Of a stretch of DNA of 64,000 nt, positions 777 through 63,177 are shown one piece after another (the first letter of the stretch is position 1; each line of letters begins with the position of its first letter). Under the pieces are notes generated by a model. The model worked only from the letters and a program-made list of their open reading frames with translations. It did no database searches and was not told where the DNA came from. Origin of the DNA: Chloroflexota bacterium (GTDB taxonomy: Bacteria > Chloroflexota > Dehalococcoidia > Lucifugimonadales > SAR202-VII-2); the NCBI GenBank assembly GCA_003228115.1, contig QEVV01000004.1, positions 85,175-149,174 of the forward strand, written 5' to 3'. A program made the position numbers and the translations under genes.

Positions 777-886
777 GAGGTGCCGGGGCGGAGCCCCGCC
801 GGGGTGACAGGGGTGTCCCCTGTAGCAAAAACATTAGTGGGCGGGCTGGGTGGGACAGCGGCGCTAGCCAGTGCAAGCCAGCCGCC
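777..886 (+). repeat. family-A structured intergenic repeat, single copy
   Basis: GAGGTGCCGGGGCGGAGCCCCGCCGGGGTGACAGGGGTGTCCCCTGTAGCAAAAACATTAGTGGGCGGGCTGGGTGGGACAGCGGCGCTAGCCAGTGCAAGCCAGCCGCC. Confidence 0.85.
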
Positions 887-942
887 TGCTCCAACGCTCC
901 AATCGTGCACAACGCCGAACACCAACCACAGAGGAGGCCAGC

Positions 943-1578
943 ATGCCAAAGACCCTTGTTGACGAGACCCTGCCCATAAACACCGGCAAGGCCTACGAAC
1001 TCAAACAAGGCCAGCTTCTACGCGTCTACGGCCAGACCACCGCCGACTTCGTCGCCTTCAACCTCCACGACCTCAAAGAGCGATTCGACCAGGCCAGGAC
1101 CAAGAGCAACCAGTCCAAGATATTCATCTCCACCGGCGACGTCCTCTACTCCCAGCGCAACAACGTCCTGCTCACCGTCACCGACGACCAGTTCCCCGGC
1201 CACCACGACATGCAAAAGGGTATGTGTAGCCGGAAACGCATTGAGATGGTCTTCATGGGCAAGTCACGACGCGACAAGTGGGGAGGAGGCCAACAGGTGG
1301 AGCAGCGTTGGGAGGACCTTCCCAGCCACGGCTGCTGGGAGAACCTATCGCGAGCCACAGAGGCCTGGGGCATAGACCCCGACGACCTGCCAGGCCCATT
1401 CAACCTCTTCCAAAACACCCGCATCGATGGCGACACAGGCATCATGTACTGGGACCTCGTCGACTTGGACGGGGACGTTTACGTGGAGATGCGGGCGGAG
1501 ACGGACTGCCTGGTAGCTGTGAGCAACTGTCCCGGCGGCCGCGGCCCGCTGACCCGCATCGTCGTCAGCGAGCCTTAG
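943..1578 (+). CDS. DUF1989 / urea-carboxylase-associated family protein
   Basis: ORF 871..1578. Start moved to ATG 943, which follows GAGGAGG (931-937); the upstream codons lie in or just after a repeat element. Family call from the FNLHD..ER...GDVLYS...HHD..C pattern. Confidence 0.65.
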   Translation: MPKTLVDETLPINTGKAYELKQGQLLRVYGQTTADFVAFNLHDLKERFDQARTKSNQSKIFISTGDVLYSQRNNVLLTVTDDQFPGHHDMQKGMCSRKRIEMVFMGKSRRDKWGGGQQVEQRWEDLPSHGCWENLSRATEAWGIDPDDLPGPFNLFQNTRIDGDTGIMYWDLVDLDGDVYVEMRAETDCLVAVSNCPGGRGPLTRIVVSEP

Positions 1579-1599
1579 GCCCATGCGAGAGCTTGTGGT

Positions 1600-2049
1600 T
1601 CAGGAGACTCGCTGTCCCTCAACCACACCGTTCAGAGTCCAGAACGAACCCTCTGCCGGAACCCCGGTGATGCTCCCATAATTGACCACCAGCGACGACC
1701 CATCGCCCTGCAGGTAGTGGTCCCAGGAATCGGCCGTCGTGCCCCCGACCCTAAGTACCACAGCCGGGCCCTCGCCCGATTGGTGGAACCGGTACAGGGT
1801 GCCTGCCGGCATAATCATGCCTTCGCCCCGGCTCACAACAGTGGCTTCATCGCCCTCGTTGTAGAACGTGGCCTCGCCATCGAGCACCAGGTAGGTCTGG
1901 TCCTCGTACGTGTGGCTGTGCAACATCACCTCGCCACCCTCAACCAAGAACTTCAACGACAGTCTTGTCCTATCAGTGCCGGGTAGTTCTTCGTTGCTCC
2001 TGCCCTCACTTAGCAACTGCGTCTTCAACTCAAACTTTTGGGGTTCCAT
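1600..2049 (-). CDS. cupin domain protein
   Basis: ORF 1600..2076. ATG 2049 follows GGAGGAG. Cupin-like LHSHTYEDQTYLVLDGEATF and PAGTLYRFH motifs. Confidence 0.7.
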   Translation of the reverse strand: MEPQKFELKTQLLSEGRSNEELPGTDRTRLSLKFLVEGGEVMLHSHTYEDQTYLVLDGEATFYNEGDEATVVSRGEGMIMPAGTLYRFHQSGEGPAVVLRVGGTTADSWDHYLQGDGSSLVVNYGSITGVPAEGSFWTLNGVVEGQRVS

Positions 2050-2210
2050 TGGACTCCTCCATCCTCGTCTTGTCATCTCAACGCCAGTTACGCAAATTTA
2101 ACCCCGAGGGTGCCCCAGAGCAATACCCAACGCAGGGGTCAGTAACTAGATTGCCGCATTTACCTAGTTTCTATGCCAAAGCGGCACTCGAACCAACTTA
2201 CGCGAGCGAG

Positions 2211-2250
2211 GGGGCCTATGGCAACACAACGTTGTGTTGCCATAGGCCCC
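2211..2250 (-). terminator. perfect 40-bp palindrome downstream of the OsmC-like gene (hairpin, no clear U-tract)
   Basis: GGGGCCTATGGCAACACAAC|GTTGTGTTGCCATAGGCCCC. Confidence 0.4.
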
Positions 2251-7999: not shown

Positions 8000-8084
8000 G
8001 GGGTGCAGGAGCAAAGCCCCGCCGGGGGCGTGGGGGAGTCCCCCACAAACAAAACATTTGAGGGCGGGACCACAGCGTCCGCTA
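8000..8084 (+). repeat. family-A repeat, variant with GTGGGGG/CCCCCAC hairpin and shortened 3' part
   Basis: GGGGTGCAGGAGCAAAGCCCCGCCGGGGGCGTGGGGGAGTCCCCCACAAAC... Confidence 0.8.
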
Positions 8085-8161
8085 CACCCAACCCTCGGGC
8101 CGAAGCCAAGGCCCCAACCTTGCATCCCTCCAAATGTGCCACCAGTCCCATGTCCCCTCAC

Positions 8162-10425: not shown

Positions 10426-11295
10426 ATGGACCCCAGGGCAACCGGCCCTTACCCCTACTCGCCCATCGTCGACCGGCCCAAGCTGACCTGGCCCAATAAC
10501 GCCAAGGTCGCCCTGTGGGTCATACCCAACATTGAGTTCTACGCCCTCAATCAGCGGATAGGCCCCAACTTCGCCGACCCGCCCGACGTTCCCGCCTTCG
10601 CCGTTCGAGACTACGGAGCGAGGGTCGGCATCTGGCGCATCATGGACGTTATGAGCCGCTTCGGCGTGCGAGGCACCGTGGCCCTCAACTCCGATGTCTG
10701 CGACCAGTACCCCCAGATCATCGAGAAGTGTGTGGCGCTGGACTGGGAGCTTATGGGCCACAACTACGCCAACACCCGCCGCCTGAGCGTGATGGAGCCG
10801 GCCGAGGAAAGAGAGACCGTCCTTGGCACTATCGACCGCATCGAAAGGGCCTCCGGCAGGCGGCCCGCGGGTTGGATGGGGGCAGGCGGTCAAGAGTCGT
10901 GGAACTCCCTGGACTTCTTCGTGGAAGCAGGCCTCAAGTACGTGGGTGAATGGGTCGCCGACGACCAGCCCTTCCTGATGGACCCCATCAAGGGGCGTCA
11001 GCTGGTGGCCCTGCCCTACACCATGGAAATCAACGACATCCCCATCTTCGAGTACAAGCACCACACCCCCCAGGAATTCGAGGGCATGGTCAAGCGCCAA
11101 TTCGACGTCCTCTACCGCGAAGGCGCCGAATCAGGGCGCGTCATGGCCATCGCCCTGCACCCCTACCTCATAGGTCTGCCCCACCGCATCGACTCCCTCA
11201 CCGCAGTCCTCGAGTACATCACCGGCCACAAGGACGTCTGGCTTGCAACGGGAGAAGAAATCACAGACCACTACCTATCACAACTGGGCGGCTAG
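10426..11295 (+). CDS. polysaccharide deacetylase family protein (PuuE/allantoinase-like)
   Basis: 289-aa ORF starting 3 nt after the previous stop. The N-terminal YPYSPI..RP...WP pattern is typical of the PuuE-like deacetylase fold. Confidence 0.7.
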   Translation: MDPRATGPYPYSPIVDRPKLTWPNNAKVALWVIPNIEFYALNQRIGPNFADPPDVPAFAVRDYGARVGIWRIMDVMSRFGVRGTVALNSDVCDQYPQIIEKCVALDWELMGHNYANTRRLSVMEPAEERETVLGTIDRIERASGRRPAGWMGAGGQESWNSLDFFVEAGLKYVGEWVADDQPFLMDPIKGRQLVALPYTMEINDIPIFEYKHHTPQEFEGMVKRQFDVLYREGAESGRVMAIALHPYLIGLPHRIDSLTAVLEYITGHKDVWLATGEEITDHYLSQLGG

Positions 11296-11388: not shown

Positions 11389-11485
11389 GGGGTGCAGGGG
11401 CAAGGCCCCGCCGGGGGCCACAGGGGGCGTCCCCCTGTATCCCTGAACGTTCGAGGGTGGGCTGGGCGGGACAACAGCGTGAGCC
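11389..11485 (+). repeat. family-A repeat
   Basis: GGGGTGCAGGGGCAAGGCCCCGCCGGGGGCCACAGGGGGCGTCCCCCTGTATCCCTGAACGTTCGAGGGTGGGCTGGGCGGGAC... Confidence 0.85.
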
Positions 11486-11523
11486 AAAACAAGCCGTTAG
11501 AAGACAATAACCCTACTCAACGA

Positions 11524-11587: not shown

Positions 11588-12373
11588 CTAGTTGGCAGCC
11601 CAGCGAATCCACGTCGCCGGAGTGGTGCCGGACTCGTTCAACTCACCATCTTCCACAAAGCTCTGGGCGGGACTGTACGTGTACAGGTCGTCCGTCGTTC
11701 CGCCGTACTCGCCTCGGTAGACTTCCACCGTCGCATCACCGTCGGGATTGTGCTGCGTCGCAGTGCCAACCACTACCATCTCTGCCGGATCGACCGGCGT
11801 TCCACAGCAAACGACCGCATTAATCTCGCCTTCAACACTCGTGGAGCCAAAAATCTCCACTCCCGTGTATGCGCCCCCTTCAAAGGTCAGCCGTAGATCC
11901 GGGGCAATCATCCCAGTGACCGGCAAGGGTACGGCCCCTCCGCCGCCTTCATGCTCATCCCCTTCGTAGAGGTCCTCTAGGTCTTCATCGATTGCATCGA
12001 GAAAATCGTCGCAATCGGGGTCGAGCTCCACGCACATGGGCAGGGGTTCAGGGCCGCTGCCATTGCCTTCGGGCGGGGCTGGCGTCGCCGAGATGGGCTG
12101 CGGCACCGATCCGCTATCGCCCTTGGGCTCGTCATCTTCGTAGAGACCCCCCGGGTTATCATCGCCTAGAACGGGAGTATCGTCGCAATCGGCTCCAGCC
12201 GCCACGTTGAGAACCTCTCCCTCTTCCACCGCGCACCCGGCCAGGGCTGCAAGGTCGCCGCCAATGCCCTCCGTTTGCTTATCGGAATCGTTGGCAGCCA
12301 GCCCGGAACTGCAACCAATGGCCGCCGTCAGCATCAGACCCAAACCCACTATGGATACCAGCCGCTTGTTCAT
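11588..12373 (-). CDS. acidic secreted lipoprotein, hypothetical
   Basis: ORF 11588..12421. Start taken at MNKRLVSIVGLGLMLTAAIGC (signal peptide plus lipobox). Asp/Glu/Pro-rich middle. Confidence 0.55.
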   Translation of the reverse strand: MNKRLVSIVGLGLMLTAAIGCSSGLAANDSDKQTEGIGGDLAALAGCAVEEGEVLNVAAGADCDDTPVLGDDNPGGLYEDDEPKGDSGSVPQPISATPAPPEGNGSGPEPLPMCVELDPDCDDFLDAIDEDLEDLYEGDEHEGGGGAVPLPVTGMIAPDLRLTFEGGAYTGVEIFGSTSVEGEINAVVCCGTPVDPAEMVVVGTATQHNPDGDATVEVYRGEYGGTTDDLYTYSPAQSFVEDGELNESGTTPATWIRWAAN

Positions 12374-12643
12374 GATCCTTCCTCCTGTCAGTCCACCTCG
12401 ATGTATTACCGTCCTGTACATTCAAGACGGAGGACAGGAGGAAAAGGTTCCCGGGGCTCAGGGCAAGGGGGCATTTACCAGGCAGGCACCCTCATCGTCC
12501 GCTGAGACAAGCATCCAACACAACGGCATCGCCTGATGGAGCGACGATGCACGTTCCAGAGTCAGCCAAGGGTGCTGTTACAATAATAGAGCAGCTAGAC
12601 GGCGGGGGCGAAGCTTTTTTAGGTACAACCGAAGACTCGTCTC

Positions 12644-14391: not shown

Positions 14392-14408
14392 GCGGTCACC
14401 TTTCAATG

Positions 14409-26961: not shown

Positions 26962-27341
26962 GGGGTGCAGGGGCGCAGCCCCGCGGGCGTTACAGAGGCG
27001 CCCCCTGTATCTAAAAACGTTCGCGGGCGGGCTGACTGGGCACTCAATGCTAGCAACTGGCAAGGAACACCGCCGCTAGTACCCACGAAGCACGTCTAGG
27101 CCAAATGCCGGGGTGCAGGGGCAACGCCCCACCGGGGTCGCAGGGGTGTCCCCTGTATTTAAAAAGGTTCGCGGGCGGGCTGACTGGGCACTCAGGCTAG
27201 CCACTGGCAAAGAACAGCGCCGCTAGTACCCACGAAGCACGTCTAGGCCAAATGCCGGGGTGCAGCCCCGCCGGGGCCACAGGGGTGTCCCCTGTATTAA
27301 AAACGTTTGTGGGCGGGCTGGGTGGGACCTCAACGCTAGCC
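26962..27341 (+). repeat. family-A repeat, three tandem units (starts 26962, 27110, 27257; period 147-148 bp)
   Basis: The core plus a conserved ~50-nt linker (..CTAGCnACTGGCAAnGAACAnCGCCGCTAGTACCCACGAAGCACGTCTAGGCCAAATGCC) is repeated. The third core lacks the first hairpin. Confidence 0.9.
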
Positions 27342-27409
27342 CCAAAATAACCGTCAGCCTTCAATCAAGGGTCGCCACATCCATCCCTGCCAAGCCCGCC
27401 GACGTGCCT

Positions 27410-31757: not shown

Positions 31758-32010
31758 GGGGTGCGGAGCATAGCGTGTCCCAACGGTCAAAGCGTTTGAG
31801 AGTCTGCCCTAACCCAGCCGAAGGGCGGGCTGGGTCGGGCAGCGGCGTCAGCCAGCATAGCTAACCCTCCAGGCAACAAAACGGACCCACCCTTTCGTAG
31901 CCAAGCGGCGCACCCGGGGTGCAGGGGCGCAGCCCCGCCGGGGGTTACAGGGGGTGCCCCCCTGTATAAAAGCGTTTGTGGGTGGGCCGGGCGGGACAAC
32001 AGCATTAGCC
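31758..32010 (+). repeat. family-A repeat, one degenerate copy (31758..31853) plus one intact copy (31916..32010)
   Basis: The intact copy reads GGGGTGCAGGGGCGCAGCCCCGCCGGGGGTTACAGGGGGTGCCCCCCTGTATAAAAGCGTTTGTGGGTGGGCCGGGCGGGAC. The upstream copy keeps GGGGTGCGG... and GGGCGGGCTGGGTCGGGCAGCGGCGTCAGCC. Confidence 0.75.
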
Positions 32011-32112
32011 ACCAATGACCGTCCCTCAAACTCAACGCACCTCAAAACCACAACCAGTCTCTTCTCCCTGAAACACCCAACTCGTAACTGATCCAGGCCC
32101 CACAGTAGGCCG

Positions 32113-38518: not shown

Positions 38519-38611
38519 GCGGGTGCAGGAGCGCAGCCCCGCCGGGGTTACAGGGGTGTCCCCTGAAACAAGACGTTCGCGGGCGGACTGGGCGGGATAA
38601 CCGAGTCAGCC
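38519..38611 (+). repeat. family-A repeat
   Basis: GCGGGTGCAGGAGCGCAGCCCCGCCGGGGTTACAGGGGTGTCCCCTGAAACAAGACGTTCGCGGGCGGACTGGGCGGGAT... Confidence 0.85.
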
Positions 38612-38706
38612 ACTTCAAGCCACTCGTACTCAAAGCGTAGCCTGCCCAAAGAAAACTACCCGACAACGATTAGCCCCAGCCCCGGGGCAGCACTGCCCAG
38701 TTTCAC

Positions 38707-38801
38707 GCGGGTGCAGGGGCGAAGCCCCGCCGGGGTCACAGGGGTGTCCCCTGAAACAAGACGTTCGCGGGGCGGGCTGGGTGGGACAGCAGCGTCCGGC
38801 C
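38707..38801 (+). repeat. family-A repeat (188 bp after the previous copy)
   Basis: GCGGGTGCAGGGGCGAAGCCCCGCCGGGGTCACAGGGGTGTCCCCTGAAACAAGACGTTCGCGGGGCGGGCTGGGTGGGAC... Confidence 0.85.
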
Positions 38802-38993
38802 AAACCAAGCCGTTACACCGCCAATAGCCATGTGCAGACCTTGAACACCTAATGTCCATTGAGAGCGCGAAGCCCCGAAGCCCCAGACTCGCTTGCCACT
38901 GCCAAGCGACCCAGCTAGCATAGCCACCATCTCATCCCCTGCTACCCGCAAAACGGCTTCGTAGCTGGCGGAGAAACCCAAAAGGAGGCACCC

Positions 38994-44630: not shown

Positions 44631-44726
44631 GGGGTGCGGGGGCAAAGCCCCGCCGGGGGTTGCAGGGGGAGTCCCCCTGCAACCGAAACGTTCGAGGGCG
44701 GGCTGGGCGGGACAGCGGCGTCCGCC
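44631..44726 (+). repeat. family-A repeat, variant with TGCAGGGGG/CCCCCTGCA hairpin
   Basis: GGGGTGCGGGGGCAAAGCCCCGCCGGGGGTTGCAGGGGGAGTCCCCCTGCAACCGAAACGTTCGAGGGCGGGCTGGGCGGGAC... Confidence 0.85.
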
Positions 44727-44838
44727 ACACCAAGTCGGCCGCCAAGAAAGAAATCCCACACGCCAGATGCGTTGTCGGCAAATGCCGGTGGTGCCCCAAA
44801 TGGGGCACGAAACTCAACATAGACATAGGGAGGTCTTC

Positions 44839-51289: not shown

Positions 51290-51355
51290 GGCTTCTAGGC
51301 GCCGCTTCGGCCAGAATGGTCGCAAGCAGCTAGATGTCATTCCCAGCGGACAAGA

Positions 51356-51396
51356 GAAGGAGCGCCCCGACGACATCGGGGCGCTCCTTCTTTTGT
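51356..51396 (+). terminator. rho-independent terminator of amt
   Basis: 14-bp stem GAAGGAGCGCCCCG/CGGGGCGCTCCTTC, loop ACGACAT, then TTTTGT. Confidence 0.85.
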
Positions 51397-51465
51397 CTGC
51401 GCTGTTCGCTGGAAGCTTGCGGGACCCCATCTAGCCCGACTCCCAGGCGCCAGGCTCGCGAAAAT

Positions 51466-51503
51466 GAAACACAAACGTAACATCCCCGCAATTGGCTTGT
51501 AAT
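51466..51503 (+). promoter_or_regulatory. phased pentamer array (GlnR-box-like) upstream of small ORF copy 1
   Basis: GAAAC(51466) n6 GTAAC(51477) n6 GCAAT(51488) n6 GTAAT(51499). TGTAAT (51498-51503) could double as the -10. Confidence 0.45.
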
Positions 51504-51558
51504 AAAAGCCTGGCATTCTAGTGGCAACGAAAACAATTTCCCTATGAGGTGTTGAACC

Positions 51559-51645
51559 ATGGAAATCATTATTGCAGGAGTCGCCTTCGTAGCACTGTTC
51601 GGCCTTTGGGTCATCGTACCGAGCAAGCTGCTCCGCAAGCGCTAA
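51559..51645 (+). CDS. 28-aa single-TM small membrane protein, copy 1 (MEIIIAGVAFVALFGLWVIVPSKLLRKR)
   Basis: Below the ORF-track length cutoff. GAGGTG lies 7 nt before the ATG, and an intrinsic terminator follows. Peptide identical to copy 2 despite 7 nucleotide differences, all synonymous. Confidence 0.75.
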   Translation: MEIIIAGVAFVALFGLWVIVPSKLLRKR

Positions 51646-51665
51646 ACACAAGACCTTGGTAGAGA

Positions 51666-51704
51666 AGAGCGCTCCGGCAATGTCGGAGCGCTCTTTCTTT
51701 TTGT
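51666..51704 (+). terminator. rho-independent terminator of small ORF copy 1
   Basis: AGAGCGCTCCG GCAATGT CGGAGCGCTCT, then TTCTTTTTGT. Confidence 0.85.
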
Positions 51705-51759
51705 CCCGCCACTGGCGGACTCAGCGTAGGCTGTGCTATCGTGCCGCTCTCACTCAACC

Positions 51760-51797
51760 GCAACGCAAACGTAACATGCCTGCAATTGGCCTGTAAT
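51760..51797 (+). promoter_or_regulatory. phased pentamer array (GlnR-box-like) upstream of small ORF copy 2
   Basis: GCAAC(51760) n6 GTAAC(51771) n6 GCAAT(51782) n6 GTAAT(51793). Confidence 0.45.
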
Positions 51798-51853
51798 ACT
51801 GGCGTGGCATTCTGTTACTAACGAAAGTAATTCTTCTTCCAGGGGTGTCAGAC

Positions 51854-51940
51854 ATGGAAATCATTATAGCAGGAGTCGCCTTCGTCGCACTGTTCGGCCT
51901 CTGGGTCATCGTACCAAGCAAGCTCCTTCGCAAACGCTAA
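51854..51940 (+). CDS. 28-aa single-TM small membrane protein, copy 2
   Basis: Same peptide as 51559..51645. AGGGGTG upstream, with its own intrinsic terminator. Confidence 0.75.
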   Translation: MEIIIAGVAFVALFGLWVIVPSKLLRKR

Positions 51941-51962
51941 ACACCCGGGACCTTGGGGATAT

Positions 51963-55870: not shown

Positions 55871-58300
55871 CTATGACACGCTGACAGGATCGATATCAAC
55901 CACCCACCCAGCGGTCAGCTCGACTTGGCTGAGAAAGCCTGCTGGGTCGGGGCTCCGCAACACAACGTGCCAACGGTACTTGCCTCGCAAGCGCGCCGGA
56001 TAACCAGGCGCTGGCCCTATCACAGCGCTCTCCGTATCCCCAATGGCGCGCTGGTGCCGCAGCAGCACGCGGCACAACCTCTCTGCCTCGCCCTCGCTCA
56101 ACGCGGCATCTGTATGGCTATAGGTAAGTTTGGCCAAGCGGGAGAAGGGCGGATACCGGAACGACCGCCTGAAGGCGATCTCTTGTTCAAAGAAGGCCTC
56201 ATAGTCCTGTGAAGCCGCTGCCTGGACAGCGTAGTTGTCGGGCTGGTAGGTCTGAATGATGCCCTCCCCCGCCAACGCTCCTCGTCCAGCCCTACCGGCA
56301 ACCTGGCACAGAAGTTGAAAGACCCTTTCCTGGGCCCGAAAGTCGGGAATGTACAAACCCAGGTCGGCAAGCATTACGCCTACGAGCATGACGTTGGGGA
56401 TATGCAACCCCTTGGTCACCATTTGCGTGCCTACCAAGATGTGCGCCTCGCCCCGAATGAACTTGTTCAACACCAAGTCCCGCTGTCCCGAAATGGTGGA
56501 GACATCTCTGTCCCATCGCACAGCCTCCGCGTCCGGGAAAAGTTCCTGCGCTTCCTGAAGCACCCGCTGCGTGCCGACGCCAAGGTAGCGAATGCGGCGG
56601 CTCTGACAGACGGGACAAGCGGAGGGTTCCTGCTGCATTCGACCACAATGGTGGCACAGCAACCGTTGGCGGTCGCCGTGATAGGTCATCGGAGTGGCGC
56701 AGCTCCGGCACTCCACTGAATGCCCACAATCGCGGCATTGAACGTGGGTTGAACTGCCCCGGCGGTTGAGAAACAGGATAACCTGGCCACCCACATCCAA
56801 GGCCCGTCTCACCGCCTCCTGGAGCGGCTCGCTGAACATCGAACGATTGCCAGCCCTAAGCTCGGATCGCATATCCACGATCCGCACGTCCGCCATACTT
56901 CCAATGCCCTCAAGCTCAGTGATAGGCCTGATACGGTTCGGCAACTTGAGCGACCGATGCTTCTCGCGTTGCGCCTGGTAATAGGTCACCACATCAGGTG
57001 TGGCGCTACCCAAAACCGTCACTGCACCCGTCAACCTCGCTAGCTCCAAAGCAGCCTCTCGGGCGTGATAGCGAGGCGTCCCCTCTGCCTGCTTGTAGGT
57101 CCATTCGTGCTCTTCGTCCAGCACGATTAAGCCAGGGTTGGACAACGGAGCAAAGAGAGCACTGCGTGACCCCACGACAATGTCGGCCTCACCTCGATAT
57201 AGACGCCACCACGCCTCACGGCGCTGTGCGGGCGTCAGTTCGCTGTGAACGACTACAACCCGCCCAGGGAAGCGCCTGTTGAACCGGTCCAGCGTCTGAG
57301 GCGTAAGCGAAATCTCAGGCACCAGAATGATGCCTTGCTTCCCCTTGCCAAGCGTTTGCGCTAGAGCTTGGAGGTATACTTCTGTCTTGCCACTGCCAGT
57401 AACCCCGTGCAAAAGAAACGAACGCGGCTCTACAGCAACGGACTCCAAAGCCGCCGAGATCTGCGCCAAAGCGCGCTGCTGATGCCCCGTCAACTTCGGC
57501 GGCGCCTCGGCCTCGTTGTGCTCTTGCACCTGGATGCCGCTCTGGACAGGGATCCGCTCCTCGAGTATGAGTCCCTTCTCCAATAGGCCTGCCACCGCTG
57601 AGGCCCCGAAGCGCCGACGCGCCTCCGTGGCTTTTATTGGTGGGCCAGCGGTCAACACCGTGTCCATCAGCGCCGCCTGCCTCCTGGCGCGTCCCTTCTT
57701 CAAGTCGGCGACGCTGTCCTCCGACAGACCGGGCGCAGTTACCAAGAAGGAAACAAAACGCTCCCGCTGACCGGGCCGCTTCCAAGTCGTTTGCCGTTCC
57801 AGCAGGCCGGACCGCTCCAATCGAGGCAGTTGCCTTTCTGCTGCCCCGCCGATGTCCCGGCGCAAGGCTGATTGCAAACTCTGAGGATGTTCTTGAAGGT
57901 AGGCCAACACAGGCCGTTGGCCCACGGGCACGGACTCGACCTGGGTCCCTACCCCCTTGGCAGTCAACGACACCATCGTGATGTGCTGACCCCGAATGGC
58001 GGGAGGGAGCATCAGGGAAGCGGCCTCGTACAGCGAGGCCATGTAGGTATCAGTAAGCCAGTGGGCCAGCGCCAATTGATGGGGACGCAGCAGGATGTCG
58101 GCATGAAGCAGGTCCACAATGTCGCGGGTGCGCTCAACCTGAGCAACCTCCGCCACACTGAACACAATGCCAGCGACATTCCTGGGCCCGAAGGGCACCG
58201 AGACAGCATGCCCCGGCTCCACCGACAAGGAAGGAGGGACACTATAGGAAAAGGTGCGGTTCCCAGCGGGGGCGTCCACCGCCACTTCTGCAAAGCTCAT
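55871..58300 (-). CDS. priA: primosomal protein N' (replication restart helicase PriA)
   Basis: ORF 55871..58342, start at ATG 58300 (MSFAEVAVD). GVTGSGKTEVY Walker A, DEEH, and a Cys-rich zinc region CRDCGH..C..C...LLCHHCG...CP.C. Confidence 0.9.
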   Translation of the reverse strand: MSFAEVAVDAPAGNRTFSYSVPPSLSVEPGHAVSVPFGPRNVAGIVFSVAEVAQVERTRDIVDLLHADILLRPHQLALAHWLTDTYMASLYEAASLMLPPAIRGQHITMVSLTAKGVGTQVESVPVGQRPVLAYLQEHPQSLQSALRRDIGGAAERQLPRLERSGLLERQTTWKRPGQRERFVSFLVTAPGLSEDSVADLKKGRARRQAALMDTVLTAGPPIKATEARRRFGASAVAGLLEKGLILEERIPVQSGIQVQEHNEAEAPPKLTGHQQRALAQISAALESVAVEPRSFLLHGVTGSGKTEVYLQALAQTLGKGKQGIILVPEISLTPQTLDRFNRRFPGRVVVVHSELTPAQRREAWWRLYRGEADIVVGSRSALFAPLSNPGLIVLDEEHEWTYKQAEGTPRYHAREAALELARLTGAVTVLGSATPDVVTYYQAQREKHRSLKLPNRIRPITELEGIGSMADVRIVDMRSELRAGNRSMFSEPLQEAVRRALDVGGQVILFLNRRGSSTHVQCRDCGHSVECRSCATPMTYHGDRQRLLCHHCGRMQQEPSACPVCQSRRIRYLGVGTQRVLQEAQELFPDAEAVRWDRDVSTISGQRDLVLNKFIRGEAHILVGTQMVTKGLHIPNVMLVGVMLADLGLYIPDFRAQERVFQLLCQVAGRAGRGALAGEGIIQTYQPDNYAVQAAASQDYEAFFEQEIAFRRSFRYPPFSRLAKLTYSHTDAALSEGEAERLCRVLLRHQRAIGDTESAVIGPAPGYPARLRGKYRWHVVLRSPDPAGFLSQVELTAGWVVDIDPVSVS

Positions 58301-58401
58301 ATCCGTATCCTCGCGCTGGCAGCGGCTAAGCGCCACCAGCAAAAGTCATCGGGCATTCCCATACCCCCTCTGAACAACTTCCGGCATGGCTCCGTCAGCA
58401 C

Positions 58402-58491
58402 GGGGTGCAGCGGCAGAGCCCCGCCGGGGTGGGGGGTGTCCCCACAAACCAAAAACGTTCGGGGCGGCCGGTTGGGAGCAACGACATCACC
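58402..58491 (+). repeat. family-A repeat, GTGGGG/CCCCAC hairpin variant
   Basis: GGGGTGCAGCGGCAGAGCCCCGCCGGGGTGGGGGGTGTCCCCACAAACCAAAAACGTTCGGGGCGGCCGGTTGGGAGC... Confidence 0.8.
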
Positions 58492-58587
58492 AAGCACCAA
58501 TCGTCCGCCAACGATAGCGCATCAACTTCCCATTCGCCTCAGTGAGACGGCGCGCATGAGATCACAGCCTCAGCCAACAAGGCCTGT

Positions 58588-58680
58588 GGGGTGCAGGGGC
58601 AAAGCCCTGCCGGGGTTACAGGGGTGTCCCCTGTACTAAAAACATTCGTGGGTGGGTTGGGTGGGAATGCAGCCTCAGTC
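58588..58680 (+). repeat. family-A repeat (186 bp after the previous copy)
   Basis: GGGGTGCAGGGGCAAAGCCCTGCCGGGGTTACAGGGGTGTCCCCTGTACTAAAAACATTCGTGGGTGGGTTGGGTGGGAA... Confidence 0.85.
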
Positions 58681-58777
58681 ACGCCAATCGTTGGTCACAC
58701 AGCCGTGGCAGGGGCCTAGCGGGACCACATTCTCCAACCCGCCAAAGCCACGCCCAGTGCCGCAATGCCAGGCCGCC

Positions 58778-58816
58778 TAAAAGAAGAAGGGGAGCGCTTT
58801 GGCGCTCCCCTTCTTC
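58778..58816 (-). terminator. rho-independent terminator of rplS
   Basis: 15-bp stem GAAGAAGGGGAGCGC/GCGCTCCCCTTCTTC, followed on the minus strand by TTTT. Confidence 0.8.
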
Positions 58817-58854
58817 AAACTTCCTATGTTGACCACACCCGGTATGAACCAAGC

Positions 58855-59199
58855 CTAGCGACGCCCGCGCTCCCTGATGCGAGCCTTCTTACCTCGGAGG
58901 CCCCGCAGGTAGTACAAGCGTGCCCGCCGTACGCGGCCCAGCCGAATCACCTTCACACCGTCGATGCGAGGCGAGTAAAGCGGGAAAGTACGCTCCACGC
59001 CAATCCCATGGGCAATTCGCCGAACAGTGAACGTGGCATTGACGCCGCCGCCACGGTTGCGAATGACCACACCCTGGAACGCCTGAATGCGCTCTCGCTG
59101 GCCCTCTACGACCTTGAAATCCACCTCTACGGTGTCCCCAGGCCGGAATATTCCGGTCTTGGGGTTGGGAACTACGGGAATGACTGCCTGAAGGTCCAT
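58855..59199 (-). CDS. rplS: 50S ribosomal protein L19
   Basis: 114 aa. FRPGDTV.V...V.EG.RERIQ.F.GVVI and GVER.FP..SP motifs. Canonical terminator downstream. Confidence 0.9.
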
Positions 59200-59384
59200 G
59201 CTGTCCTCGGGGAACGAGTCGTACGATATTCGTCAGCAACCGATTGTACTACGGGCCCATGCCCCTGTCCATAAGCACCGAGGCTTCAGCACATTGCCGA
59301 AACCTCGTCGCCTCCCATACCTAGCACAATGAAAGGGCGACACCTGGATAAATGAGTTCGATGACGTGCCCGCGGGCTTCCGCT

Positions 59385-59477
59385 GGGGTGCAGGGGCGCA
59401 GCCCCCCCCGGGGCGTGGGGTGTCCCCACAAACCAAAAACGTTCGGGGTGGGCCGGGTGGGAGCAACGTCGCTAGCC
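59385..59477 (+). repeat. family-A repeat, GTGGGG/CCCCAC hairpin variant
   Basis: GGGGTGCAGGGGCGCAGCCCCCCCCGGGGCGTGGGGTGTCCCCACAAACCAAAAACGTTCGGGGTGGGCCGGGTGGGAGC..GCTAGCCAGTGCAA. Confidence 0.85.
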
Positions 59478-59513
59478 AGTGCAAATCGTCCGCCCATCTC
59501 ACTGCTCTCCTTA

Positions 59514-59541
59514 GATCAAAGAAACGAGATCAAAGAAACGG
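59514..59541. repeat. 14-nt tandem direct repeat
   Basis: GATCAAAGAAACGA GATCAAAGAAACGG. Confidence 0.8.
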
Positions 59542-59570
59542 TGCGGTTCAACCCTCCCCAATACTCAAGC

Positions 59571-59596
59571 AGGGGCGTTCGAATGAACGCCCCTAC
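59571..59596 (-). repeat. family-B GTAGGGGCG hairpin repeat (reverse orientation)
   Basis: Minus strand reads GTAGGGGCGTTCATTCGAACGCCCCT, just downstream of the ADH gene stop. Confidence 0.65.
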
Positions 59597-59635
59597 TCCT
59601 CTTGTAACCAACGCGAGAGCAGACCCCGTCACCCC

Positions 59636-60730
59636 TTACCCGTTAGGCAGCAACACCGGAATCATCGCCTCCATGGCGTCATGCGCCCGAAACGCCTCGT
59701 TCACATCCTCCAGAGGATAATGATGGGTGATCAGCTTCTCAACGGGATACTTCACCGCTGTACTCATCGACTCCAAAGACCTTATGGCAGTCTGCGGCGT
59801 CGATGCGACGACGCCAGTCACATAGAGAGACTTCCGCACGATGAGCGCCGGGTTGACCGGCAACGGCCCGTAGTCCGTGTACTGGCCCACGACGACGTAC
59901 TTGCCGCTCATCCGCACCATCTCCAAGCCCTCTTGGAAGGCTGTTTTCCCGCCCGACGCCTCAATAACAACATCTGCTCCCTTGTCACCAACCAGCTCCA
60001 ACACTCGCTGGACCCTGGCCTCTGGCTCTGGGAAGTCGGCTATATCAACGGTCAGGTCGGCGCCCATCTCCTTGGCCAAATCTAACCGGTTCGCAGGAGC
60101 ACCAACGACAACGACCAACGAAGCGCCGGACAGCTTTGCCTGGTTCAGGGCCCCCATGCCTACCGGCCCGGAACCCTGCACCACAACCGTCTCACCGACC
60201 CGGATACCCCCGGCGCGCTCGATCGCGTTCATTGTTGTTTGGTTCCCAATGAGGGACATCAGGGCGCGCTCACTAGAAACATCGTCAGGAACCCTCAGGA
60301 GCCACGGCGTAGGCTTCAAATAAACGTATTGGGCAAAGCCACCGTTCAGGACCGGCGGATCGCTCAAGGGCTCCAGTCCGTACTTGCCATAGGTTTCGCA
60401 GAACAGCGGCATGCTAATGGTGCAGTAGTAGCAATGGCCGCAGGGCGTCCCGGAGAACAGCACGCGGTCTCCCTCTTTGACTGGCCGGCCCAGGGCATCT
60501 GAAATCACGCCACGACCCATCTGGGCAATGATCCCAATGTTCTCGTGACCAAAGATGGCCGGAAACGGAGCATCGGGATTGTGCCAAGCGTGTACGTCGG
60601 TGCCACAGACCGCAGCCATCTGGATCTGAAGCAGCACGGCGCCGGGTTCAACCTCCGGGACCGGAAACTCCTGTATCTCTAGGGGCTTCTGCGGCCCCAT
60701 GAAAACGGCTGCCTTACAGGTATTGGGCAT
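59636..60730 (-). CDS. zinc-binding medium-chain alcohol dehydrogenase family protein
   Basis: VCGTD.H...., GHE..G and VQGSGPVG nucleotide-binding motifs. Confidence 0.8.
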   Translation of the reverse strand: MPNTCKAAVFMGPQKPLEIQEFPVPEVEPGAVLLQIQMAAVCGTDVHAWHNPDAPFPAIFGHENIGIIAQMGRGVISDALGRPVKEGDRVLFSGTPCGHCYYCTISMPLFCETYGKYGLEPLSDPPVLNGGFAQYVYLKPTPWLLRVPDDVSSERALMSLIGNQTTMNAIERAGGIRVGETVVVQGSGPVGMGALNQAKLSGASLVVVVGAPANRLDLAKEMGADLTVDIADFPEPEARVQRVLELVGDKGADVVIEASGGKTAFQEGLEMVRMSGKYVVVGQYTDYGPLPVNPALIVRKSLYVTGVVASTPQTAIRSLESMSTAVKYPVEKLITHHYPLEDVNEAFRAHDAMEAMIPVLLPNG

Positions 60731-60848
60731 GACTTTCTCCTTGGAACATATTGGGCGAGCAGCCCCCGCTGGGATTGTTGGTAACTAGTCCTTGCGAGTT
60801 CCCAAGGACGGGAACGTGGCTTTTGGAGGGGCGGTCATGTCTTCGCTG

Positions 60849-61244
60849 CTAGGCAGGTCGAAACACCGGTACGTCCGCGTCCCCGAACGTAACCTGCAGC
60901 GGCATACCGATGTGAACATCCTCAGGGGCGCAGCCAACTACGTTGCTCATGAGAACCGGCCCCTCATCGAGTTCAACAAGGGCCACAACATAGGGAACAG
61001 GCCACTCGTCTGGCACGGGACGCATACGGAGAGGCACAATCGTGTAGCTGTATACCTGAGCCTTGCCACTCACCTCCTGCCAGTCCGGGTCCGAAGCGCC
61101 GCAGAAAGGGCAAAACAGCCGGGGATAGTGAAAGAACTCACTACAACTGCGGCACCGGGGAAGGACAAAACGACCCGTCCGGGCCGCCTCCCAGAAAGGG
61201 GCGGTGGCTTCAGTCTCTGGCGGAGCAAAAACGTTATCGGTCAT
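60849..61244 (-). CDS. DUF35 OB-fold / zinc-ribbon protein (thiolase-associated)
   Basis: ORF 60849..61292, start at ATG 61244. FWEAA..G.....RC..C....YPR..CP.C pattern. Directly downstream of the thiolase-like gene. Confidence 0.75.
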   Translation of the reverse strand: MTDNVFAPPETEATAPFWEAARTGRFVLPRCRSCSEFFHYPRLFCPFCGASDPDWQEVSGKAQVYSYTIVPLRMRPVPDEWPVPYVVALVELDEGPVLMSNVVGCAPEDVHIGMPLQVTFGDADVPVFRPA

Positions 61245-61249
61245 GACCC

Positions 61250-62422
61250 TCAGTCCTTTGCCAGGACCATTGTGTGGTGATTTGATATCCATCCGGCAAT
61301 CGACGTCGTAACAGCCAACTTTGCGTTGGCGACCTGGCGATCACCGGCCTCTCCTCTGAGTTGCAGGCAGGCCTCAATCACTCTCCTCATGCCGGCGAGA
61401 TGGGCATAGGCCAGCAGACCCCCGTCAGTGTTGACTGGGCACCGGGCCTTACCCAACTCCAGATTGCCGTCAATGGCAAACTGGCCGGCCTCTCCCTCCC
61501 CGCACAAACCGAGCCCCTCCAGCTGGAGCAGCAGAGCGATACTGAAACAGTCGTACAACTCCGCAACATCAATGTCTTGGATCGTGACCCCAGCCATGCC
61601 CAACGCCTGCGCCGCCGAATCCTTCACTCCGAAGTTCTGAAGGCGGGGCGCCTGGGCCACCATCCAATGGGTCGATTTGCTTCCTACACCCAGCACCCGG
61701 ATGGGAGGCTGCCGCAGGCTTTTCGCCCGCTCCAATGATGTGACGATGAAAGCAGCGCCACCATCCGTAATCACCGAGCAATCCGGGACCCTTAGAGGTT
61801 CGGCCACCATGCGCGTTTCGGGGTAGCTTTCCCAGGTCAAGGCGTCCTGCCTGAAGGCCCCCGGCGTCATAGCCGCGTGCTTCCGCTCTGAGATGCCCAC
61901 AGCAGCAAACGACTCTTTGGGAGCGTTGTAGTCATGGAGGTACCGCTGGGCCAGCAGCGCATAGTGGATCGGGGCCGGAATGCCGCCGTAGGGCGACTCG
62001 TACTCGTCACCCAGCGCCGAGAAGCTGGCAGGAAGGCCGGTGACGCCCCTGGACGCCGTGTTGGCGCTTTCGCCGAACACGCATATCGCCACCTCAGAGA
62101 GCCCGGACTCAACCAGGCTCACAGCCTGCGTCAGCAACGTTCCCGCCACCGTGCCCCCAGCCACCGTAGTAGCCACAGACGGATCGACACCCATGTATTC
62201 AGCCAGGGATTCAGCGTTGAAAAAGGTGGGGCGGGTAAACGGGGTCTGGCACAGCCAAGCATCCACATCCCCAGGAGCAAGGCCCGCGTCGTCCAAGGCC
62301 AGTCGTGCAGCCTTCGCCTGGAGTTCTAGTGTGGAGAACTGAGGCAGTCTGCCAACCTCAGTATTGCCGATTCCAGCAATGGCCAGCGGCTTCGTGAAGG
62401 CTTTCCTAGGATTGAACGTCAT
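61250..62422 (-). CDS. thiolase-like protein (SCP-x / nonspecific lipid-transfer-type thiolase)
   Basis: 390 aa with a thiolase-fold pattern (C-terminal NT.GG...GH..GA.G) and the typical pairing with DUF35. Confidence 0.75.
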   Translation of the reverse strand: MTFNPRKAFTKPLAIAGIGNTEVGRLPQFSTLELQAKAARLALDDAGLAPGDVDAWLCQTPFTRPTFFNAESLAEYMGVDPSVATTVAGGTVAGTLLTQAVSLVESGLSEVAICVFGESANTASRGVTGLPASFSALGDEYESPYGGIPAPIHYALLAQRYLHDYNAPKESFAAVGISERKHAAMTPGAFRQDALTWESYPETRMVAEPLRVPDCSVITDGGAAFIVTSLERAKSLRQPPIRVLGVGSKSTHWMVAQAPRLQNFGVKDSAAQALGMAGVTIQDIDVAELYDCFSIALLLQLEGLGLCGEGEAGQFAIDGNLELGKARCPVNTDGGLLAYAHLAGMRRVIEACLQLRGEAGDRQVANAKLAVTTSIAGWISNHHTMVLAKD

Positions 62423-62590
62423 CGAGAATGAATCCTCCCCTGACTAAGGGCGTCATTATACCGGCCCCCGTAGCGAAATCAAACTCGTTCGAGAGCCGCG
62501 GAACGAAGGAAACCGCTCGTAGGCCCCAAGAGGGTCAAGAAGGTTGCAACATGCGTGAAGCAGGCAAAGACTTCCAAAAATAAACTGTAA

Positions 62591-63177
62591 TGCTGGGCAC
62601 AGCCCGCCGTAGTAACAGGGGACTAGAAACATCCGTGGGCGGGTCGGATGGGTGGGACCGCGGCGCCAGCCTAACCAAACGCCCGACCGCCACGAGCCCC
62701 TGGGTCCGACAACACCATCCTTAAAACGCCTCCAATGCGACTGATCGGGGTGCAGGGGCAAAGCCCCACCGGGGTGACAGGGGTGTCCCCTGTACCAAAA
62801 ACATTCGTGGGCGGCTGGGTGGGAGGAACCGGGTCAGCGCAACCAAATGCCCACCCGCCACGAGTCTCGGATGGTCCAACACATGCCTCGTCCGAGGACG
62901 GGTAGCCTGTATTACGGGGTGCAGGGGCGAAGCCCCGCCGAGGTGACTGGGCTGTCCCCTGTACCAAAAACATTCGTGGGGGGGCTGGGTGGGAGGAAGA
63001 ACTTCAGCCCTAGCCAAAGCGTCCGCCCATGAGCCCTGCGAGTCCAGCCCTCCATTGATGCTGAGACGAGGTTGCCGCATTGCGGGGTGCAGGGGCGCAG
63101 CCACGCCGGGGGCACAGGGGGTGTCCCCCTGTATCAAAAACATTCGCGGGCGGGTTGGGTGGGACCTCACCGTCAGC
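62591..63177 (+). repeat. family-A repeat array: one degenerate and three intact units (starts about 62591, 62747, 62916, 63084; period 156-169 bp)
   Basis: Cores are separated by ~75-nt linkers that share a 5' motif (AACCAAAnGCCCnnCCGCCAnGAG). The array fills most of the 800-bp gap between the thiolase-like and CaCA genes. Confidence 0.9.

Follow-up and report, generated by a model that had tools for sequence, protein, structure and literature searches.

A small, polar intergenic repeat with two conserved hairpins in a marine SAR202 bacterium

Introduction

Why should a short, structured, non-coding sequence recur between the genes of a marine bacterium, SAR202 (Dehalococcoidia), in copy after copy that all point the same way? 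The window analyzed here, by which we mean the whole 64-kb stretch of DNA, raises this question in an acute form, and the candidate answers differ in what they hold responsible for the polarity: a transposase at insertion, a host process that reads the element, transcription, or replication itself. With moderate confidence, we favor a REP-like, non-autonomous, structured DNA repeat of the SAR202 (Dehalococcoidia) lineage whose polarity is set by replication rather than by transcription.

Copies, strand and placement

Both an nhmmer profile built from 16 copies and a covariance model (R1) recover 18 copies in the window, starting at 777, 8000, 11389, 26962, 27110, 27249, 31758, 31916, 38520, 38708, 44631, 58402, 58588, 59385, 62587, 62747, 62916 and 63084, in agreement with a preliminary description that had listed 18, of which 16 were clear and two, here 31758 and 62587, degenerate. 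The 18-mer GGGCGGGCTGGGTGGGAC, allowing at most 3 mismatches, occurs 13 times in the window against 0.32 expected by chance. All 18 copies lie on the + strand by either model, and the − strand of the window holds no copy at E<=10 (HMM) or E<=0.01 (CM). They are also all intergenic, situated between Pfam-supported genes, and the open reading frames that overlap them have no family matches. One + strand frame previously taken for a gene, 58765–59274, is not real; rplS occupies 58855–59199 on the − strand instead. The earlier claim of a single orientation and strictly intergenic placement thus stands, whatever the direction of the flanking genes. Its chance figure of 2^-17 does not, because the 18 copies form 10 separate sites in which same-site copies are tandem duplicates, so that the within-window figure becomes 2^-9. 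Four of these sites lie between two − strand genes, three between divergent genes, two between convergent genes and one between two + strand genes. The overall density is 18 per 64 kb, or about 1 per 3.5 kb, and the window copies are mutually only ~66% identical.

Anatomy of the element

Read 5′ to 3′ on its G-rich strand, the element is a non-coding sequence of ~120 nt that ends near ..CCGTCCGCCAA, which narrows the 95–125 nt first given. It opens with GGGGT, followed by hairpin 1 (GGGGC-GNA-GCCCC), CCGGGG, hairpin 2 (xxxGGGG(G)-TGT-(C)CCCCx'x'x'), an A-rich linker (..AAAACGTTCG..), a G block (GGGYGGGYYGGGYGGGA) that is predicted to be G4-capable, and a C/A-rich 3′ tail of ~40 nt. Both hairpins fall inside the first 50 nt, and none is conserved in the tail; the unpaired G runs hardly vary, and the boundary of the element is sharp beside hairpin 1 and fuzzy at the other end.

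The two hairpins vary in different ways. In hairpin 2, the compensatory change proposed at the outset is now formally confirmed: the three outer pairs show 4–5 Watson–Crick pair types each, 95.7% of cells are paired as against 47–69% when the partners are slid, and the covariation score is 0.260 versus 0.107 for shuffled alignments, with 0 of 500 shuffles reaching 0.260. Hairpin 1 is a C(GNA)G mini-hairpin whose stem varies solely in wider relatives, where it is extended to GCAGGGGx/x'CCCCTGC. The hairpin parse finds the triloops already reported (GCA, GAA and AAA) together with GGA and similar loops, and 24 of 44 parsed copies have a GNA loop closed by C-G. The d(GCGNAGC) form is an extra-stable mini-hairpin (PMC13037366, PMC3201870); the GNA loop of hairpin 1, so closed, is predicted to take this form, and its TNC-loop complement is not.

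Folding energies of the hairpins alone show no difference from one strand to the other, and the strand asymmetry of the structure would instead rest on the GNA loop and the G-quadruplex motif. The canonical motif, (G3+N1-7)x3 G3+, that is, four runs of at least 3 G with loops of 1–7 nt on one strand, is present on the + strand in 13 of the 18 copies and absent in 5. Across the window there are 17 such motifs on the + strand versus 4 on the − strand, and 13 of the 17 are inside copies. Most copies of the L067 lineage have only part of the motif.

Polarity and strand composition

Across all contigs, 19 of 19 additional sites are oriented as the first site of their own contig, those outside the window included. 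Once the copies are masked, the strand that carries the element has negative GC skew in 15 of 18 independent contigs; the other 3 have weakly opposite skew, and wherever the skew is clear (|skew| >= 0.025) the element strand is the C-rich one (11 of 11 contigs). In the window, the + strand is C-rich in every 4-kb bin, genes on the + and − strands are alike C-rich on +, and decomposition by third codon position puts the replication term at about −0.15. The usual skew rule makes the C-rich strand the leading-strand template, with the sequence of the nascent lagging strand. Taken with the − strand orientation of rplS, priA and glnS, the skew suggests that the strand able to form the G4 and the GNA mini-hairpin, consistently the locally C-rich one where the skew is clear, is probably the leading-strand template. 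The DNA analyzed shows no origin or terminus. The idea of a polarity tied to replication, voiced in the preliminary description, thereby gains indirect support.

Relatives and change between sister species

Full-length relatives of the element are found in marine Dehalococcoidia, and a family from soil has the same architecture. Its first 28 nt recur far more widely, as repeats in Streptomyces, Clostridia and others, and the 5′ unit GGGGTGCAGGGGC-GNA-GCCCCGCCGGGG forms dispersed or tandem repeats in Dehalococcoidia, Streptomyces, Clostridia, Desulfovibrionales and Alphaproteobacteria. Copy density, by contrast, is lineage-specific: species with 81–84% GlnS identity have 0–1 copy per 21 kb versus 18 per 64 kb here. 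Rfam gives no match at gathering score for the window and 11 related loci, and only chance-level matches at E<=10 over 62400–63300; viral contigs do not match the element, and querying the literature with the sequence string found no paper. The earlier failure to assign a named family is consistent with both the Rfam and the literature searches.

The sites of the window, all on the + strand, differ widely in their history. Copy 1 (777..900; CM 113.7 bits) is full length, has its canonical G4 motif at 839–854, and neighbors an alpha/beta hydrolase gene (11–682, +) and a DUF1989 gene (+), both assigned by Pfam. Copy 2 (8000..8100; 73.6 bits) has a shortened G block and a hairpin 2 of the type GTGGGGG/CCCCCAC, and copy 3 (11389..11510; 84.3 bits) has convergent flanks by Pfam, a polysaccharide deacetylase gene (10426–11295, +) and a gene at 11588–12421 (−). 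Between Asp dehydrogenase (−) and SelA (+) sits a cluster of three copies (26962..27370); those at 26962 and 27110 are a 148-nt tandem duplication, and that at 27249 has lost 8 nt from hairpin 1, a deletion not shared by its sister-species ortholog. The degenerate copy 31758 and the intact 31916 (31758..32040) lie between PP2C (−) and an MFS transporter (−), in a spacer with zero copies in two sister species. The pair at 38520..38830, between hydantoinase A (−) and arylmalonate decarboxylase (+), corresponds to one copy in a sister species, and hairpin 2 of the orthologous copy has changed in a compensatory manner from CAGGGG/CCCCTG to AAGGGGG/CCCCCTT. The copy at 44631..44755, alone in the spacer from glnS (−) to an amidohydrolase gene (+), is 97% identical to its sister-species ortholog. 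Between priA (−) and rplS (−) are two copies (58402..58710), of which 58402 corresponds to two neighboring copies merged into one, with both members of the pair still distinct in a close relative; another single copy (59385..59500) follows between rplS (−) and a Zn-dependent dehydrogenase gene (−). Finally, four copies (62587..63200, the first degenerate), spaced 160–169 nt apart, occupy the spacer between thiolase (−) and a Na/Ca exchanger gene (−).

Compared with sister species, some copies have been kept, one has undergone a compensatory change in place, and others have been gained or lost in tandem (1 vs 2 copies at one orthologous site, and 3 vs 2 with a fused copy at another), have fused or have decayed, one decayed ortholog having 77% identity versus ~93% in its flanks. 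For the most part, copies are kept in place, duplicated in tandem, deleted or decayed rather than freshly inserted, and no clean empty site was found. Some copies are far more conserved than third codon positions (97% vs 68%), which could mean that they serve the host and are not just a passive repeat; given a mutual identity of only ~66% in the window, part of the core's conservation may be an effect of which copies can still be detected.

Explanations for the polarity

The most likely cause, in our reading, is a strand-asymmetric structure acting at a single-stranded stage of replication. The element would act as DNA, and replication would serve as a filter: where the structure-prone strand falls on the lagging-strand template, a copy would be deleted or never become established, whereas copies in the observed orientation would be spared, and slippage would multiply them head to tail. 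Insertion into single-stranded DNA in one orientation only may contribute too. Tandem duplication, recombination between neighboring copies and decay account for local growth and shrinkage of an element that is long-lived at orthologous sites and turns up now and then in new spacers.

A first alternative, which we regard as possible yet doubtful, is a non-autonomous element moved by an HUH/Y1 transposase of the RAYT/REP or IS200/IS605 PATE type, its orientation being fixed at insertion. The enzyme would recognize the two hairpins and insert into the lagging-strand template; the active strand would be the C-rich one, with both hairpins near a sharply defined 3′ end. Strict polarity that tracks GC skew, conserved and covarying hairpins, a sharp boundary beside hairpin 1 facing a fuzzy opposite end, and copies present in spacers that are empty in sister species all fit this scheme. 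So does the architecture of the termini: head-versus-tail alignments of 15 copies score as shuffled sequence, in line with the earlier statement that terminal inverted repeats were not seen and that this speaks against a classical MITE, and flank-versus-flank alignments of the same number of copies reveal no target-site duplication beyond shuffle expectation, the 148-nt tandem duplication being the sole exception. HUH elements predict both absences, and IS200-type ends use GC-rich triloop hairpins. The preliminary description had leaned toward mobilization of this kind and had proposed a search for the enzyme. That search, by tblastn with RAYT and IS200 TnpA queries, found no Y1/HUH transposase in the window or ~200 related loci, bar one unrelated IS200. 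The latter, in locus L131, ends with GC-rich triloop hairpins. Also against transposase mobilization are hairpins at one end only, where IS200/IS605 and PATEs have one per end; the lack of a GTAG/CGTC tag, of inverted REP doublets and of a conserved target sequence at the boundary; change between species that is mostly tandem gain or loss in place; and the age of the window copies, whose ~66% identity speaks against a recent burst.

In a second alternative, which we consider unlikely, the element would serve the host as a polar DNA signal, recognized in single-stranded form when DNA is replicated or repaired. A mini-hairpin that excludes SSB, together with a G4, might for instance offer a landing pad on the leading-strand template where priming or restart could take place, or the element might act on topology or pause forks, along the lines of the E. 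coli RRS. GNA mini-hairpins are known from primase sites and ssi sites, and SSB binds them poorly (PMC13037366); in E. coli, post-replication gaps are triggered by the GC-rich, G4-containing RRS repeats depending on how these are oriented (PMC10592627). The link of orientation to the replication strand, the near-invariant unpaired G runs, the orthologs conserved well above third-codon identity and the one in-place compensatory change agree with such a role. However, close relatives have 0–1 copy per 21 kb against 18 per 64 kb here, individual copies decay, fuse or lose the G4 motif with no visible replacement, spacing is clustered and irregular, unlike that of a spaced signal, and the canonical G4 is missing from 5 of 18 copies and from most of the L067 lineage. 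Broader still, and in our judgment improbable, is the idea that the two-hairpin and G-run module is a widespread signal acting on single-stranded DNA, either as the recognition site of an undescribed single-strand mobilization enzyme or as a polar replication element used by the host. If true, the host element might be a quadruplex–duplex hybrid with the two hairpins in G4 loops, a mark on the leading-strand template where priming or restart begins or topological stress is relieved. In SAR202 the module would have been amplified to ~1 copy in every 3.5 kb, and its orientation would switch at the origin and at the terminus.

A structured RNA family transcribed from the + strand, as small RNA genes or cis-acting UTR elements, is very unlikely. 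It would explain the hairpin covariation and the excess of G-U-type mismatches on the + strand (39 G-T vs 12 A-C cells, or 20 vs 11 minus one ambiguous pair), and a + strand gene beside 6 of 10 sites makes sense UTR placement possible there. Yet 4 of 10 sites, with 9 of the 18 copies, have − strand genes on both sides, which makes an mRNA element unlikely and weakens the expressed RNA once offered as an alternative; orientation tracks strand composition, not adjacent genes; + strand transcription would run head-on to the inferred direction of replication; no promoter-like or terminator-like site in 58300–63300 coincides with a copy; Rfam is silent; and pairing of the G block with the tail is not copy-specific.

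MITE identity is rejected for want of terminal inverted repeats and target-site duplications, and so is an integron attC array, as attC sites have inverted core sites (RYYYAAC ... GTTRRRY), one long imperfect hairpin and a nearby intI gene, and serve one cassette ORF per site, unlike copies that lack inverted ends, are separated by housekeeping genes on both strands (priA, rplS, glnS) and occur several to a single spacer.

Comparison with known systems

The replication-polarized repeat that we favor shares features with four known systems. Like the phage G4 origin and RSF1010 ssiA (PMC13037366), it has a strand-specific C(GNA)G mini-hairpin in a multi-hairpin single-stranded structure of ~100 nt; those are single-copy origin parts with demonstrated priming, whereas the SAR202 copies are dispersed chromosomal repeats read from genomic sequence. 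With the E. coli RRS it shares the form of a GC-rich intergenic repeat with a G-quadruplex motif. The effect there depends on orientation relative to the fork, as it would here, and the SAR202 element differs in being many-copy, with a high and variable density, in having its G4 on the opposite strand, and in showing no sequence similarity.

IS200/IS605 elements and PATEs likewise lack inverted terminal repeats and target duplications, have hairpin-based ends and show a replication-related orientation bias, but they have a hairpin at each end, whereas both hairpins of the SAR202 element are at one end, with no visible tetranucleotide target and no TnpA or TnpB gene nearby. In IS200/IS605, the active strand lies on the lagging-strand template; if the G-rich strand is the functional one here, its place on the leading-strand template would be the reverse of the IS608 rule.

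REP, BIME and REPIN sequences, extragenic palindromes associated with RAYTs in Proteobacteria, are short, GC-rich, hairpin-forming, high-copy and strictly extragenic, single or clustered, as is the SAR202 element; both persist long by vertical descent, and both presumably act or move in single-stranded form. A REP/BIME unit is a 20–40 nt imperfect palindrome tagged at one end by GTAG or CGTC (PMC3733652), whereas the SAR202 element, at ~120 nt, is non-palindromic overall, combines two different hairpins with a G-run block and a tail, and starts with GGGGTGCAGGGGC, having neither tag at the foot of either hairpin. Inverted doublets, which are common, and a RAYT gene flanked by the repeats are features of REP/BIME systems, whereas here copies run head to tail in the window and in every multi-copy locus, and no RAYT gene is seen in the window or the family loci. 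Its orientation, moreover, is locked to strand composition, and 3 of 10 sites are in divergent promoter regions. The SAR202 element thus belongs with the small extragenic repeats of other bacteria, as a polar variant not described before.

Architecture and conserved hairpins

The 18-mer GGGCGGGCTGGGTGGGAC, searched with up to three mismatches, occurs 13 times in the window and always on the + strand, as against 0.32 occurrences in shuffled sequence. A profile HMM built from 16 copies recovers 18 matches, all on the + strand, and gives no − strand match in the window even at E ≤ 10; the covariance model of the repeat, R1, returns the identical 18 loci with no − strand match in the window at E ≤ 0.01. 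Both models bear out the preliminary description, which had placed 18 copies on the + strand at coordinates within a few bases of ours. It had also called two copies degenerate, as those at 31758 and 62587 are, and had described all as strictly intergenic, as they are; no open reading frame overlapping a copy in the window has a Pfam match. The observation is therefore confirmed, and the interpretation first attached to it is partly supported.

Read 5′ to 3′ on its G-rich strand, the repeat consists of GGGGT, hairpin 1, CCGGGG, hairpin 2, an A-rich linker with ACGTT, the G block GGGYGGGYYGGGYGGGA and a tail. Alignment of the tails gives the consensus ACA.C.GCG..AGCCA....A.CCGTCCGCCAA, and since their similarity extends ~40 nt beyond the G block, the unit measures ~120 nt. 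Within the G block the G triplets are near-invariant and the variable positions are pyrimidine “loops”.

Structure was analyzed in 44 distinct copies from the window and its relatives and in a model-aligned set of 76 matches, 73 of them distinct. In an alignment fitted to the structure, and hence biased toward pairing, 95.7% of hairpin cells form a standard pair, versus 86.1% in column shuffles and 47–69% with the partners slid; none of 500 shuffles attains the observed covariation score, 0.260 as against 0.107 for shuffles. Hairpin 2 has AU, CG, GC and UA at its three outer pairs, in counts such as 24/18/7/5. A model-free parse of the raw hairpins agrees, with hairpin 2 arms pairing as ACA/TGT, GTG/CAC, TCC/GGA, TCT/AGA and GCA/TGC, so that the compensatory changes earlier proposed for this hairpin are upheld by the score and the raw parse alike. 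Hairpin 1 is nearly invariant within the window family and covaries in more distant members (GGGGC-GAA-GCCCC, GGGGA-TTC-TCCCC, GGGGAC-AGA-GTCCCC). Misalignment of hairpin 2 left both RNAalifold, run on a MAFFT alignment, and a naive all-pairs covariation screen uninformative, and the model-based alignment took their place. Single-sequence folds suggested that the G block pairs at long range with the C-rich tail, but this helix was rejected, as a copy's own tail pairs no better than those of other copies (median rank 0.55).

Polarity, strand composition and strand-specific structure

The strict orientation first claimed holds, with its chance figure corrected from 2^-17 to 2^-9: copies sharing a site are tandem duplicates, which leaves 10 independent sites in the window. 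One site lies between two + genes, two between convergent genes, three between divergent genes and four between two − genes (31758/31916; 58402/58588; 59385; 62587–63195). In related loci with more than one site (L125, L154, L067+L088, L151, L082, L164), all sites within a locus share one strand, with 19 of 19 agreements by our own count, which makes the case stronger.

The window has a G+C content of 60% and carries priA, glnS, hydantoinase/caprolactamase subunits, an amidase, amt, an acyl-CoA synthetase, selA, aspartate dehydrogenase, PP2C, a thiolase, a Zn-dependent dehydrogenase and a Na/Ca exchanger. Where a GlnS homologue has its source named, the label is SAR202 cluster or Dehalococcoidia, and proteins identical to those of the window are found on marine metagenome contigs. 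A relative's gene calls identify rplS, on the − strand at 58855–59199, as the real gene there, and the longer + strand reading frame as not real. Two other features flank the ammonium transporter gene on its downstream side: a long inverted repeat directly behind it (51346–51400; 25-nt arms, 92% complementary, 5-nt loop), which is probably a terminator, and a ~295-nt unit duplicated in tandem (51455–51944; 75–92% identity), each copy encoding the 28-residue hydrophobic peptide MEIIIAGVAFVALFGLWVIVPSKLLRKR, possibly a leader peptide or a small membrane protein. This pair sits between amt and a gene called luciferase-like monooxygenase (Bac_luciferase) on a matching metagenome contig.

The + strand is C-rich in all 16 of the 4-kb bins, as are the genes of both strands when read on it, and splitting third-codon-position skew into coding and strand terms leaves a strand term of about −0.15. 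Once copies are masked, 15 of 18 independent contigs show negative skew on the element strand, including all 11 with an absolute skew of at least 0.025; the three opposite cases have absolute values of at most 0.013. The association is genuine, because the orientation in which a contig is deposited is arbitrary and both contig strands were found to carry copies. The leading strand is usually G-rich, and rplS, priA and glnS all lie on the − strand, from which we infer that the element's G-rich strand is the leading-strand template.

The two strands also differ in the structures they are predicted to form. Canonical G-quadruplex (G4) motifs number 17 on the + strand of the window versus 4 on the − strand, and 13 of the 17 fall within copies. 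The loop of hairpin 1 is GNA closed by C–G in 24 of 44 parsed copies, and the complementary strand presents a TNC loop instead. A GNA loop closed in this way is that of the d(GCGNAGC) mini-hairpin, which is extra-stable, its stability depending on the closing C–G pair (PMC13037366, PMC3201870). Both predicted features, G4 motif and GNA loop, thus belong to the + strand alone; hairpin-only DNA parameters give no strand asymmetry of folding energy, the two strands being similar. Stem mismatches, counted on the + strand and uncorrected for phylogeny, comprise 39 G–T versus 12 A–C cells (20 versus 11 without one ambiguous pair), an excess that hints weakly at the + strand as the folding strand.

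Turnover between related species

The relatives compared were the sister species L220/L224 (93% GlnS identity), L225 (MFS transporter 88%) and the closer L235 (dehydrogenase 97%). Upstream of glnS a copy is retained with 97% identity between species, whereas glnS third codon positions stand at 68% and the surrounding spacer at ~87%. In the decarboxylase/hydantoinase A spacer a copy is kept at 79% identity with both hairpin 2 arms altered together, a compensatory change in place; this spacer also shows a tandem gain, with two copies in the window versus one in the sister species. Copies 26962 and 27110 form a 148-nt tandem duplication, and hairpin 1 of copy 27249 lacks 8 nt present in its ortholog, an internal deletion. 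The priA/rplS spacer of L235 contains three copies, and window copy 58402 corresponds to two neighbours among them merged, its 5′ part matching the first and its 3′ part the second, a fusion with loss. The L235 ortholog of 58588 has decayed to ~77% identity versus ~93% for its flanks, and that of 59385 has lost its G4 motif. A whole site has been gained or lost in the MFS–PP2C spacer, which spans 499 nt with two copies in the window versus 64 nt in L224 and 141 nt in L225 with none, and species at 81–84% GlnS identity have 0–1 copies per 21 kb. There has been no recent burst, given that window copies are ~66% identical to each other and 78% at most.

Clean empty sites, sought in sister-species spacers to define the ends, yielded no boundary or target site because alignment fails on spacers so short or so diverged. 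When close relatives are compared, DNA directly 5′ of a copy is unalignable and its 3′ flank well conserved (window 59285–59380 against L235; 38300–38520 against L220), which suggests that gain, loss and remodelling occur on the 5′, hairpin side of existing copies. Separately, L225 encodes at 14019–16739 a 906-residue SIR2_2/nSTAND NTPase/TPR protein, in a stretch sharing several neighbour genes with the window, where we noticed no counterpart; it looks like an anti-phage defence gene.

Distribution of the repeat and of its 5′ unit

The repeat has full-length relatives in marine Dehalococcoidia/SAR202 genome bins (L066, L067/L088, L058, L031) and on marine metagenome contigs (L109, L125, L151, L154, L156, L158), and the two-hairpin module occurs alone in some Dehalococcoidia loci (L008, L082, L073, L094). 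Closed SAR202/Dehalococcoidia genomes with the family include OZ253584.1 (3.09 Mb) and CBDDDS010000005.1. A related family of ~140 nt, found on soil metagenome contigs (L139, L145, L150, L161, L172, L188, L193, L199, L200, L121, L108) and also in L164/L163/L117, L123, L101 and L128, has its parts in the same order with a different linker and G block. It runs GGGGT, hairpin 1, CGGGGG, hairpin 2 with a TGT loop, a pyrimidine-rich linker CTTCTCTTTTCCTT and the G block GGGGGGTGGGG, and is likewise dispersed, since its flanks differ among contigs.

The repeat's first 28 nt reach further still. The 24-nt unit GGGGTGCAGGGGC-GNA-GCCCCGCC, its first part, is present in unrelated phyla: in Streptomyces (L010 6950–7420; L014 2700–3000; L038 6650–7050), Clostridia/Oscillospiraceae (L039 1–200; L080 1–300; L011 1–120), Desulfovibrionales (L054 1–120) and Alphaproteobacteria (L060, L065), often as head-to-tail arrays with a period of 24 nt or ~50 nt and often at contig ends, a position typical of high-copy repeats. 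It is far commoner than chance would allow, which we put roughly at one match or so over the whole of the Streptomyces DNA scanned. A comparison of its strand with the chromosome arm in six Streptomyces chromosomes, judged by eye with a central origin assumed, was uninformative, four of the six being consistent. It was exposed by a hairpin-1-only pattern that was itself too unspecific over genome contigs; the metagenome pattern likewise gave many chance matches from GC-rich soil DNA. The unit, of which we found no description, may be a repeat family that spans phyla, or else a mini-hairpin/G-run motif that arose by convergence. So unexpectedly wide a distribution merits its own study, and recurrence in unrelated phyla hints at a shared, undescribed recognition mechanism.

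What sets the polarity

Taken together, the data fit a REP-like structured intergenic DNA repeat with slow turnover, through tandem duplication, recombination and decay, and a polarity set by replication. As the cause of that polarity we favour strand-asymmetric structure. Work on hairpins and triplet repeats in E. coli has established that deletion is promoted by structures on the lagging-strand template, and expansion by those on the nascent lagging strand. By analogy, copies whose G4/mini-hairpin strand became the lagging-strand template would be lost, and copies in the observed orientation would persist and build head-to-tail arrays. Such a model would explain polarity, tandem clusters and an orientation indifferent to gene direction; it does not account for the colonisation of new spacers. 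Its main rival is a hairpin-recognising enzyme performing a single-strand insertion step, which is possible; our search for HUH transposases in the window and related loci found none except an unrelated IS200 in L131. It is also possible that the repeat serves the host as a polar replication signal, given the high conservation of some copies and the near-invariance of unpaired G runs, but copy density differs greatly among close relatives and individual copies decay, both of which speak against every site needing its copy.

Of these readings an RNA role is the least likely, and a described RNA family was rejected, Rfam giving no match. A promoter or terminator role was rejected, as no promoter-like or terminator-like consensus site coincides with copies in 58300–63300. 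In some relatives (L067 342–611 and 1562–1673; L154 66–171) the G block reads GGGCTGGTGGGAC and contains the E. coli Chi octamer GCTGGTGG, where window copies read GCTGGGTGGG. Chi- and KOPS-type signals normally take the leading-strand orientation, to which the G-rich polarity here points opposite; both readings were rejected, and with its skew orientation opposite to that of E. coli Chi the octamer is probably coincidental. Also rejected were a phage origin (among 2.9 million viral contigs the hairpin unit had no match and a gapped pattern nine, none a family member), a tRNA-derived origin (tRNA and tmRNA genes are absent from the window) and an integron attC array (inverted core sites are absent).

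Implications and relation to known repeats

SAR202 bacteria are among the most abundant groups of the deep ocean and, to our knowledge, none has been cultured and made genetically tractable, which leaves sequence features such as this repeat among the few handles on their chromosome biology. A repeat that reports the replication strand would be a marker with which to orient and join metagenome contigs and to locate origins and termini, and it explains assembly breaks at these sites. That replication filters structured DNA by orientation is a long-standing idea, made directly testable in a bacterium by this natural case of a strand-asymmetric predicted structure (mini-hairpin and G4) confined to a single orientation.

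How, then, does the repeat compare with known systems? It has neither inverted ends nor target duplications and so is no MITE, as had been argued at the outset; nor could it be assigned to a named family, a judgment that stands, since Rfam gave no match and a literature search by sequence string found no paper. The IS200-type element of L131 (6480–7120), whose TnpA shares 47% identity with a Salmonella IS200 sequence, carries a GC-rich triloop hairpin upstream of tnpA (CCCCGGC-TCT-GCCGGGG), partly recurring downstream; its end hairpins resemble those of the window in style and differ in sequence. Strict REP, BIME or REPIN elements are excluded in turn, for the window repeat lacks a GTAG or CGTC tag and inverted pairs and is a non-palindromic unit of 120 nt. 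Polar and G4-motif-containing, it is a new type within the known class of small extragenic repeats, in an uncultured lineage of ecological importance.
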